64,000 nt of DNA from Dictyostelium discoideum (lineage: Eukaryota). Every line of letters begins with the position of its first letter. Positions within the stretch are counted from its first letter, which is position 1. This document shows positions 23,225 through 25,845 of the stretch, piece after piece. Position numbers and translations under genes: made by a program. The notes under the pieces are model-generated. The model saw nothing but the letters and a program-made list of their open reading frames with translations, did no database searches and was not told where the DNA came from. The stretch lies in assembly GCA_000004695.1 (NCBI GenBank), contig CM000152.2, forward strand, positions 736,001 to 800,000. The letters run 5' to 3'.

Positions 23225-23839
23225 AAAGTAATAACAATACAAATAAAAATAATATTAAAACATAAACAGTCTTTGTATTTTGTAACATTAAACTCTTATA
23301 TCAATTGTTGTAGGGAATTTTATTATTTAATTTCACTACAGTAGCGCAGTGAAAAAAAAAATCACTGACCCTAAATTTTTTTTTATTCAAAAAACAAATA
23401 AAGTTTATTATTTTTTTGTTTTTAATTATTAATTCCTATTTTAATGGTTAATTATTATTATTTTTTTTTTTTCTTTTTTTTTTTTTTTTTTTTCTTTTTT
23501 TTTTTTTTTTTTTTCTCATTTTTTTCATTTTTGTTTTTCATTTTTTTTTTATTTTCATATTTTCAATTTTAGGACAACAAATTATCAAACAAACATTAAA
23601 GAAATCTAAAACTTCAGAATATTTATCATTTGAAAATAATTTAATTTAAAAGAAATGTGAAGAGTTTATATTATTTGTTATTAATGAATTACCAAAATTA
23701 AAATACTTAATTGGGTATTAATTTCAAAAGATGAAAGAACAAAAGCAGCAAAATTAGATAGTGAAGGTTTCTTTCAAAACAATTCTAAGTGTTACTCCAG
23801 TTGTTATCAATAATAAAAAATAAATAATAATAATAATGT

Positions 23840-24900
23840 GATATCATCAGCTCAATCTTCACCATCATTAAGTAGTGCATCAACACCAATTCCAACTCCA
23901 TTAAATACTAGTAGTAATAATATTGGTGGTAATACTACTACAAGTGTATCAGTTGGATAATCCCCAACAATCAGGGGTATACCATCATCACCAGATCAAC
24001 AAGTTTTATTCAACGCAAACCATCAGTCAGTGCAATATGATGCCAAAATTAAATTCTTCTTTGAATTGATCAACTGATTTCCTTGGTAAAGAAAGAGAAA
24101 ATCATCAATCAGCTTCATCTTCACCTTCATCTTCATCATTATCAATATCATCATCATCACAACAACAACAACATAATAGTAACAATCATCCAAAATCGTT
24201 TGATGAAGCACCTGAAGTATTATCACCATTTGATATTTTAGAATTAAAAGTTAATGCAGAGAATTCTTTATCTTCATCACAAGATTTAAATCAACACAAT
24301 GTAACAACGGCTAGTCAAATTTTACAAGAAATTAAACCAACTAAAGAATTAACTAAACAAGAAACTGAAGCATGCAATTCCAGAGGAACCAATTGAAGAA
24401 TGTAATAAATCACTACAACCACTGCAATTAAGATCATCTTCTTCATCTTCTTCATCTTTTTCAACAACAACAAAAACAACAACATCACCACCACCACAAC
24501 AACAACAATTAGATTCGCCATTACCATTACCAGTTACTATTATTAATATGCCAATGGATGATGATGAACTTATTAGTGATGGTACAATAAGTGGTGCTTA
24601 AACTAATGATGGTATCAATTATTGTACCATCATTAGTTAAAGAATCATCAAGAGAATCATTATTGGCTACAACTATTGATAATTCAACATTATCAACTAC
24701 ACCATCACCATCTCCAAAATTACCAACTCTTGAAAGTGTTGTAACTGCTAAACCATTGTTACATCATCATCTTCTTCTTCTTCAACCACCACTACTCAAA
24801 CTAATAAAGAAATTTGGACTAAAATTGATCAAAATACTGCACCATCAACTCCATCTATAATTTTACCAAAAAGATTACCTTCTCAATCAAATCTTAATAT
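23840..24900 (+). pseudogene. Decayed S/T/N/Q-rich coding sequence inside the TIR-bounded segment, interrupted by frameshifts and in-frame stops.
   Basis: Codon-like periodicity and protein-like composition are present (..SASTPIPTPLNTSSNNIGGNTTT.., ..TASQILQEIKPTKELTKQETEA.., ..[41 protein letters not shown]..). Every frame is broken repeatedly. The region ends in an (AAT)n tract. Confidence 0.4.
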
Positions 24901-25439
24901 TAATAATAATAATAATAATAATAATAATAATAATAATAATAATAATAATAATAATAATAATAATAATAATAATAATAATAAAAATAATAATAATAATAAT
25001 AATAAATAATAATTAATTAAATAAATAAACAAAAAGAATAAATAAATAAAAACAATAAATAAAAAAAAAGATAATAAAATAAAACTACAATCTTAATTGA
25101 AAAAAAAAAAAAATAAAATAAATAAATAAAATAAATAAATAAAATAAAACTAGTTTTAATAAATCTAAAACTTTGTAAATATGTTTTGAAAAAAAAAAAA
25201 AAAATTTTATTTTATTGTTTAACTAAATTTGGTTTAAAATTCAAATAAAGAACTATCTACTCTAAAAAAGAGACCCTTTTCAAATGATAATTGTTGAACA
25301 CCATTTCTGCAATCACTACCGTCATGAGTAGAAAATTACCATTTAAACTAAATTGAATAAATCCACTTGATAACCTGTTGGAATTAGCTACTTGTTTTTT
25401 AATTATTATTTATTGTTTATTTGTTTATTTGTCTATTTA

Positions 25440-25520
25440 TTTATTCATTTATTTATTCATTTATTTATTCATTTATTTATTCATTTATTTATTCATTTAT
25501 TTATTCATTTATATTCATTC
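25440..25520. repeat. 12-bp minisatellite (TTCATTTATTTA) of about 7 units inside the TIR-bounded segment. It is preceded by (AAT)n at 24899-24980.
   Basis: Direct reading. Confidence 0.85.
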
Positions 25521-25845
25521 ACTAATAATATATTACCTATTTTAAAATTGAAAAAATGAAAATGAAAAAAAAAAAAAAAAAAAATTGAAAAAAAAAAAAT
25601 TGAAAAAAAAAAAAAAAAAAAAAAAAAAAAAAATATTACCAATAATAATTATAATAATAATAAATAAAATAATAATTAAAACAAAAAATAAAATTACAAT
25701 TTAATAAACTTTATTTGTTTTTTGAAAAAAAAAAAATTTAAGGTCAGTGATTTTTTTTTTTTCACTGCGCTACTGTAGTGAAATTAAATAATAAAATTCA
25801 CTACGCTGTAGTGAAATTTTATTGAAAATTCCCTACAACATCAAT

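Follow-up and report, generated by a model that had tools for sequence, protein, structure and literature searches.

A 2.5-kb segment with Tdd-4 ends on Dictyostelium discoideum chromosome 3 is probably a non-autonomous Tdd-4 derivative carrying passenger DNA

A 2.5-kb segment of Dictyostelium discoideum chromosome 3, bounded by long inverted arms, raises the question of whether it arrived as a single transposable unit and, if so, to which family it belongs. The segment occupies positions 23306–25840 (2535 bp in total) of the window, by which we mean the whole 64-kb stretch of DNA that was analysed. We favor the interpretation, to which we assign a probability of about 85%, that it is a non-autonomous derivative of Tdd-4, in the Ginger2/Tdd group, in which both terminal inverted repeats (TIRs) were kept and the transposase gene was replaced by passenger sequence.

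The 16-mer TGTTGTAGGGAATTTT occurs as an exact match only twice in the window, at 23306–23321 on the forward strand and at 25825–25840 on the reverse strand; the element opens with TGTTGTAGGGAATTTT and its right arm terminates in AAAATTCCCTACAACA. The pentamer TCAAT directly abuts both termini (23301–23305 and, identically, 25841–25845), and by our calculation a chance match of 5 nt at a given position has a probability of about 0.4% at a G+C content of 22%. The TG...CA termini and the 5-bp TCAAT duplication, both proposed in the initial annotation of this DNA, are thus borne out. Elements of the Ginger2/Tdd group have termini of the form TGTNR...YNACA and TIRs of about 50–300 bp, and their target-site duplication is 5 bp long in Dictyostelium Tdd-4 and Tdd-5 and 4 bp in metazoan members (PMC2836005). 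The window element follows this terminus rule, with TGTTG at 23306 and CAACA at 25836–25840, its arm length falls within the range given for the group and its 5-bp duplication is as reported for Tdd-4 and Tdd-5. A preference for the AT-rich target RTATAY has been established for the Ginger2/Tdd members with 4-bp duplications (PMC2836005); the target here (CTCTTATAT-CAAT-GTCAC) is AT-rich with no clear RTATAY, as read from one site only.

The insertion lies in a spacer of about 100 bp between a 180-aa host ORF (22682–23224, forward strand, from ORF mapping), which ends 82 bp upstream of it, and the gene DDB_G0278363. The element is found at the same place in the D. discoideum assembly GCA_054883475.1 (99.7% identical over 20.7 kb). 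Rfam and tRNA searches of the locus for an RNA gene or tRNA target gave no match. The reconstructed empty site (CTCTTATATCAATGTCACAATG, with a single TCAAT) and the Tdd-4 terminus had no match in two metagenome scans, and exact look-ups of the flanking proteins, made in search of an empty site, returned only the same occupied locus in one AX4-like assembly.

The left TIR spans 23306–23580 (forward strand, about 275 nt) and the right TIR 25545–25840 (reverse strand, 296 nt), and in their alignment 230 columns match, 19 differ and 34 hold gaps, which gives 92% identity when gaps are set aside. Their homology had been recognised at the outset, at about 90% identity, with a length of some 130 bp that proves to have been underestimated. 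Besides the terminal 16-mer, the left arm has a single palindromic subterminal unit of 36 nt and a hairpin motif, CAGTGA(A)nTCACTG, and further in it becomes T-rich; in both arms the inner part is T-rich/A-rich and closes with a common ...CATTTTCAT(A/T)TTTTCAATTTTA block. What chiefly sets the arms apart is the 36-nt subterminal unit, of which the left arm has one and the right arm two. We predict that these palindromic units are likely transposase-binding sites, and their variable number (1–3) hints at where the transposase binds. The motif CACTRCAGTAG is found three times in the window, where 0.12 occurrences are expected: twice in the arms and once at 25878 in the repeat preceding the neighbouring ORF, where a recurrence of the arm motif had already been noticed.

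For the origin of the arms we turned to Tdd-4 copies found via their transposase, the query being a fragment of TDD4 (XP_629668) given in the PMC2836005 supplement. At two independent loci, L003 and L005, both of which are interrupted Tdd-4 copies, an ORF 94–98% identical to the TDD4 transposase has a terminal repeat about 600 bp upstream of it, and this repeat begins with the same 16-mer as the window element; locus L004 (P0010) is without a terminus. In the first 150 nt, identity to the Tdd-4 TIRs of L003 (5431) and L005 (6642) is, respectively, 97.3% and 98.2% for the right arm and 94.7% and 93.6% for the left. For the right arm the identity is about 96% over 300 nt, and BLASTN gives 82% over 330 nt with gaps included. 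The similarity between L003, L005 and the window starts at the 16-mer, and the flanks beyond it are unrelated. Judged by their sequence, the arms are terminal inverted repeats of Tdd-4; with the same 16-mer start, the TGTNR terminus and the 5-bp duplication, this supports the relationship to Tdd-4/DDT-type transposons suggested in the initial annotation.

The Tdd-4 match also bears on the idea that the arms represent a host inverted segmental duplication or an inversion breakpoint, with no transposition involved. Inverted repeats rich in runs of T and A abound in this genome, where a repeat finder returned hundreds of low-complexity inverted pairs, but the arms match Tdd-4 ends, at 97–98% identity, and stop at the same nucleotide in two loci with unrelated flanks, and the 16-mer is confined to the two element ends in 64 kb. 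We consider such an origin extremely improbable, and the arm match in itself effectively refutes it.

Between the arms lies, first, a decayed coding-like stretch rich in S, T, P and Q (23653–24898, forward strand), in which three-frame translation reveals frameshifts and in-frame stops. It is followed by a (TAA)n microsatellite and then A-rich low-complexity sequence (24895–25149, Tandem Repeats Finder), with (TAA)39 spanning 24895–25013, by a conserved non-coding block, here called region B (25150–25400, defined by alignment), and by eight copies of a 12-nt minisatellite (TTTATTCATTTA; 25416–25512, Tandem Repeats Finder). The earlier description of the interior as a frame-broken S/T-rich pseudo-ORF with mini- and microsatellites is therefore accurate. 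The Ginger2/Tdd transposase is an integrase-like protein with an H2C2 zinc finger and a DDE core (PMC2836005). No similarity to a Tdd transposase was found in the window by tblastn or tblastx with the TDD4 and TDD5 cores (zinc finger plus DDE region), and a Pfam search of the interior gave no match, which means that the element can only be a non-autonomous member of Ginger2/Tdd. As the source of the interior we rejected a Tdd transposase or SPXX tail that had decayed (tblastx matched low-complexity sequence only), and likewise Tdd-4 exon 1 as the source of the sequence immediately interior to the left arm (z = -0.8).

The window interior did not match the 5′ 1.4 kb or the middle 1.5 kb of Tdd-4. 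Region B could still be Tdd-4 3′ sequence, from the last ~880 bp beyond the parts compared, and the element would then be a simple deletion-plus-filler derivative. Region B shows no similarity to the 3′ region of Tdd-5, nor to a Tdd-4-like 3′ region in D. cf. discoideum (L007, a locus with a diverged right end).

The same combination of arms and interior is found at other loci. Two copies of the element lie at locus L002, which belongs to a different D. discoideum isolate and is not syntenic. Copy 1 has both arms and region B, the latter aligned at about 6400–6700 with indels of 1–2 nt only (local alignment z = 66 against shuffles); its right end is degenerate and its flanks are inverted, not direct. 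Copy 2 comprises the inner left arm and the interior, without the terminal 45 nt, and is 86% identical to the coding-like stretch over 868 nt (9335–10155). The interior is found once more in the AX4 gene DDB_G0282771, at 95% aa identity and with the same frameshifted end. None of these other family members (the two copies at L002 and DDB_G0282771) is a full copy that has both termini along with a duplication. The left-arm/interior and region-B/right-arm junctions both recur at L002, which argues for a family and not a single deletion; the initial annotation had allowed for either a deleted copy or a non-autonomous family, of which this recurrence favours the second.

The junctions are also informative about a scenario in which Tdd-4 inserted twice, independently and in opposite orientations, and both copies were later cut back to their outer ends, with about 2 kb of ordinary host DNA between them and without the segment ever having been one mobile unit. 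Tdd elements are often truncated and clustered, as exemplified by the interrupted copies at L003 and L005, and the interior resembles the low-complexity coding DNA typical of Dictyostelium. Two separate insertions would not leave the perfect direct duplication of 5 bp seen on the outer flanks, though, and neither the recurrence of both junctions at a non-syntenic locus nor that of the interior in DDB_G0282771 fits with them, which is why we regard this scenario as very unlikely.

A gene-capturing ('Pack'-type) Tdd element, with a transduplicated host-gene fragment as its interior that is possibly expressed chimerically with the upstream ORF, appears to us quite unlikely as well. It would agree with the coding-like character of the interior, with the AX4 gene prediction that links the interior to the upstream ORF, and with one in-frame stop of the window that is a sense codon in L002 copy 2 (R in P0005). 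On the other hand, an exhaustive search with a 108-aa piece of the interior against 1.84 billion representative proteins returned only copies of the element and no parent gene. Another in-frame stop is common to the window interior and L002 copy 2, and a frameshift and a stop in common between copies indicate that the sequence was already non-coding when it was spreading.

The element thus has exact ends with a 5-bp duplication, no detectable transposase, and arm–interior junctions that are found at other loci. If it is a non-autonomous Tdd-4 derivative, as we suggest, about 2 kb of passenger DNA, non-coding and unrelated, would have taken the place of the transposase gene, and this internal replacement could have come about by, for example, abortive gap repair after excision. 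An autonomous Tdd-4 copy elsewhere would supply the transposase, which would bind both ends of the element, excise the unit and join its 3′-OH ends to a target whose strands are cut 5 nt apart, and repair of this stagger would yield the TCAAT duplication. We infer that the element has been mobilised in trans by the Tdd-4 transposase in this way. As the left arm is short of one subterminal unit and 5–7% diverged, this particular copy may no longer be mobile.

The host ORF constitutes exon 1 (22682–23197) of the chimeric AX4 model DDB_G0278667, which splices it to exons 2–4 (23653–23715, 23877–23942 and 24094–24393; P0006 exon mapping), and three out of four exons are found within the element. 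On the other side, the orphan gene DDB_G0278363 (25869–26570, forward strand), encoding a coiled-coil-like protein of 233 aa, starts 29 bp after the element, and the right arm that ends at this distance from its ATG is A/T-rich. No homologue of DDB_G0278363 was found in the protein collection searched, other D. discoideum isolates included. The gene is flanked by direct repeats of about 60 nt (25851–25905 and 26658–26718). Faint Tdd-like motifs are seen in these repeats; the direct repeat can tentatively be extended across the insertion site, in a gappy alignment with a small gain in score.

This setting could suggest a small, uncatalogued, Tdd-4-mobilised 'passenger' family that has been built into host genes, with the interior giving rise to spliced exons of DDB_G0278667 and the right arm to the promoter of DDB_G0278363. 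It would, if true, be a first case in which a Ginger2/Tdd transposon donated a promoter or was exonised, and we find it rather unlikely. Taking the element as a non-autonomous Tdd-4 derivative, we point out that an annotation correction seems warranted, since passenger sequence would make up all or most of no fewer than two 'hypothetical protein' genes in AX4, DDB_G0278667 and DDB_G0282771.

It could also be asked whether the element is already a catalogued D. discoideum repeat, masked as Tdd-4 fragments or as DDT-S, thug-S or thug-T, in which case the mechanism would be the same and nothing would be new. We take this possibility seriously without thinking it probable. A catalogue of complex D. 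discoideum repeats dates from 2001, with Tdd, DDT and thug making up 1.5% of the genome (PMC5633606), and one gene has reported homology to both Tdd-4 and thug-S (PMC3386910). Against this, the AX4 annotation treats both genes that contain the interior as ordinary hypothetical genes and not as _TE genes, and published small RNAs from a paper in which thug-S is mentioned had no match to the element. A full-text literature search for the terminal sequences of the element returned unrelated primers only. DDT-S, thug-S and thug-T resemble the element in that they are short, reside in the same genome and have no recognisable transposase. The DDT and thug elements were reportedly defined in 2001 as classes separate from Tdd.

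On our reading the element is an unremarkable, non-autonomous representative of an established family. As such it slightly extends the D. discoideum transposon catalogue, in that Tdd-4 would have transposase-less derivatives carrying about 2 kb of passenger DNA, and leaves the understanding of the Tdd-4 family unchanged. It does not belong to the MITE class, being 2535 bp long where MITEs, which have no coding capacity, measure less than about 800 bp, and seen in only a handful of copies where they reach high copy number. The Nematostella element Ginger2-1N1_NV, a non-autonomous, MITE-like element of 252 bp with 4-bp duplications (PMC2836005, Table 2), is similarly without a transposase and has TIRs in common with an autonomous Ginger2 partner, whereas the window element is 2.5 kb long, with a long passenger and a 5-bp duplication.

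Closer to home, Tdd-5 has identical terminal 16 nt, a comparable TIR length (297 bp as published, against 260 bp for Tdd-4) and a reported 5-bp duplication (PMC2836005), but its TIR is wholly diverged past nucleotide 16. BLASTN of the element against the Tdd-5 locus (L008, a 3′-truncated copy, 82–98% identical to TDD5) left the arms unmatched, and with only the terminal 16 nt in common we rejected the arms as Tdd-5 ends. To our knowledge, Tdd-4 is among the few integrase-type (Ginger2) cut-and-paste transposons known. The window element resembles it in its TIR (97–98% over the first 150 nt of the right arm), its TGTTG...CAACA termini, its 36-nt subterminal units and its 5-bp duplication, and differs in that Tdd-4, at 3839 bp (3.8 kb), has an integrase-like DDE transposase where the 2535-bp element has about 2 kb of passenger. 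A 3.4-kb version of Tdd-4, said to have been described in 1999 alongside the original element, which speaks for a repeat that is already on record, reportedly carries a 0.4-kb deletion. This version is likewise an internally altered Tdd-4 with both ends kept, but most of the ORF is retained there, whereas in the window element the whole coding region has been replaced.

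We find that the segment at window positions 23306–25840 belongs to the known Tdd-4 (Ginger2/Tdd) family as a non-autonomous element: it has Tdd-4 ends, precise boundaries and a 5-bp duplication, lacks a transposase, and has relatives at other loci. Just two occurrences of the 16-mer TGTTGTAGGGAATTTT are found in the 64 kb, at 23306–23321 (+) and 25825–25840 (−), and TCAAT adjoins both termini (23301–23305 and 25841–25845), which bears out the TG...CA ends and TCAAT duplication described in the initial annotation. We calculate that two pentamers at set positions would agree by chance in about 0.4% of cases at the base composition of the window. 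The inverted homology of the arms also holds, but not the length of ~130 bp first given for it, as 23306–23580 pairs with 25545–25840 (230 matches, 19 mismatches, 34 gap columns), from the termini to a common ...CATTTTCAT(A/T)TTTTCAATTTTA block. The main difference between the arms is a 36-nt unit, GTAGTGAATTTTATTATTTAATTTCACTACAGTAGC, itself palindromic (GTAGTGAA...TTCACTAC), of which the left arm has one copy and the right arm two.

The zinc-finger/DDE core sequences of TDD4 (XP_629668) and TDD5 were taken from the Ginger paper's supplementary data (PMC2836005). Using the TDD4 core as query, Tdd-type proteins were recovered from several new Dictyostelium assemblies, and their loci were then fetched. 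In each of two loci of an AX4-like assembly, L003 and L005, unrelated flank gives way to a sequence beginning TGTTGTAGGGAATTTTCAATAAAATTTCACTACAG..., the Tdd-4 terminal inverted repeat (TIR), and an ORF 94–98% identical to TDD4 follows some 600 bp downstream. Over the first 150 nt, the identity of the right arm is 97.3% with the L003 TIR and 98.2% with the L005 TIR; over 300 nt it is about 96%. The left arm is 93–95% identical. The proposed Tdd-4-type assignment is thereby supported by comparison with transposase-bearing copies, and the same identity excludes a host inverted duplication as the source of the arms. The 36-nt unit is found twice in L003 (5431–5560) and three times in L005 (6642–6810), showing that its copy number varies among Tdd-4 ends, and we ascribe the single unit of the left arm to a deletion between repeats. 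In the window copy the tips are intact, but the left arm has one unit fewer and is 5–7% diverged, and this copy may no longer be mobile. L003 and L005 are both interrupted, the former (6470–8200, 8971 onward) by tandem arrays ('TTTAAAG'-rich and 'ACTTATTAAGTA') as well as a Tdd-5 end, the latter by a 5.6-kb insertion (8052–13675), and are typical transposon clusters.

The interior contains a coding-like stretch on the + strand, with frameshifts and stops, and also (TAA)39, repeats rich in A and a minisatellite with a 12-nt unit, in agreement with the frame-broken pseudo-ORF and micro- and minisatellites noted at the outset. No similarity to the TDD4 or TDD5 core was found in the window by tblastn, and the element interior has no Pfam matches. 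By tblastx the interior gave low-complexity matches only, both to L007, a Tdd-4-like element of D. cf. discoideum, and to the 5' 1.4 kb and middle 1.5 kb of Tdd-4 available from the interrupted copies L003 and L005. As no transposase was detectable in the interior by these three approaches, the element is non-autonomous, as had been suggested. The sequence next to the left arm on its inner side was also considered as Tdd-4 exon 1 and rejected as dissimilar (z = −0.8).

A 108-aa open piece of the interior (24070–24393) was searched exhaustively against 1.84 billion representative proteins. This one segment led to no parent gene, so the search gives no support to Pack-type capture, by which the interior would derive from a host gene. 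The two relevant matches were DDB_G0282771 and a 110-aa product from the D. discoideum isolate assembly GCA_054859355.1. DDB_G0282771, a 66-aa "gene" of the reference strain AX4 located elsewhere on chromosome 3, is 95% identical to the interior piece, stops at the same frameshift (…ACNSRGTN), and is probably element-derived too. The locus of the 110-aa product (L002) is not syntenic with the window and contains two relatives of the element in a 5-kb span. In copy 1 (5162 to about 7007), the left arm begins with TGTTGTAGGGAAATTT and carries two subterminal units, and the tip of the right arm is degenerate; the centre of this copy differs from that of the window element, and its block at ~6400–6700 matches the conserved non-coding block at window 25150–25400 (region B) with 1–2-nt indels only (z = 66). 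The flanks of copy 1 (5140–5165 and 7005–7030), a run of T on its left side and of A on its right, are inverted and not direct, and its right tip is short of 11 nt, which may reflect past recombination between two copies in inverted orientation. Copy 2 (9335–10155) is 86% identical to window 23352–24185, spanning the inner left arm and the adjoining 600 nt of interior with the same in-frame TAA; it is without the terminal 45 nt, and divergence begins at a CAA/CAT microsatellite. Between them, the two copies establish that both junctions (left arm/interior and region B/right arm) exist elsewhere. Two independent truncated Tdd-4 insertions on either side of host DNA would also place Tdd-4 arms here, but are unlikely given these recurrent junctions and the perfect flanking duplication. 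As frameshifts and stops are common to the copies, the passenger, that is the non-transposase DNA between the arms, was already non-coding when spreading.

The window has a G+C content of 22% and no tRNA genes, and there are no Rfam matches within 22000–28000. The element and its surroundings (20.7 kb) are also present in D. discoideum GCA_054883475.1 at 99.7% identity (5 mismatches, 14 indels). Exact look-ups of the flanking proteins and a metagenome scan for the reconstructed unoccupied site yielded no empty target. The ORFs around it are ordinary host genes (protein kinase, TPR protein, DNA polymerase epsilon subunit B, methyltransferase-like protein). The product of ORF 25869–26570 is identical to the AX4 hypothetical protein DDB_G0278363, for which no homologues were found in a 5.8-billion-protein collection. 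With the element removed, about 100 bp (23225–23305 plus 25846–25868) would separate the stop of the upstream 180-aa ORF from the DDB_G0278363 ATG, so that the upstream region of this gene is now almost wholly transposon right arm. DDB_G0278363 is bracketed by ~60-nt direct repeats (25851–25905 and 26658–26718; z = 14 against shuffles), reading AATGTAATTGCNTTGTAAATG...TTTTACACTG..GTAGTGA.GCT.CAAAAAAAA, the first of which contains the ATG. Their similarity to subterminal TIR parts is weak (Tdd-4, z = 4.5; Tdd-5, z = 3.5), and they have no TGTTG terminus. A 20-nt exact match, AATTTTATTATTTAATTTCA, to left-arm positions 11–30 at 35539–35558 (reverse strand) is AT-rich, sits within a diphthine-ammonia ligase-like ORF, and is probably due to chance.

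The AX4 model DDB_G0278667 (316 aa) fuses the 180-aa host ORF (exon 1, 22682–23197) with three "exons" inside the element (23653–23715, 23877–23942 and 24094–24393), its first intron covering the left arm, and the newer annotation of GCA_054883475.1 has a different 474-aa chimera across the same span. The element may be a repeat already catalogued under some name, but the AX4 annotation has its interior as ordinary hypothetical genes, and its group is possibly an uncatalogued Tdd-4 sub-family. We consider gene-model correction the main value of the finding, which is otherwise modest.

Tdd-4 was reportedly first isolated through its insertion into a plasmid, which makes mobilisation in trans plausible. 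We suggest that Tdd-4 transposase supplied in trans would bind the terminal and subterminal repeats, excise the element and integrate it at a cut staggered by 5 nt. Replacement of the Tdd-4 coding part, for example in gap repair after excision, probably gave rise to the family.

The element terminus, TGTTG, conforms to the TGTNR rule, and its 5-bp duplication is as reported for Tdd-4 and Tdd-5 (PMC2836005). Tdd-5, recognised in locus L008 by 82–98% identity to TDD5 and with a terminus also at L003 8971, has a terminal 16 nt identical to that of the element and of Tdd-4, but its TIR is otherwise unrelated, whereas with Tdd-4 the element shares the TIR, the start nucleotide and the 36-nt subterminal units.
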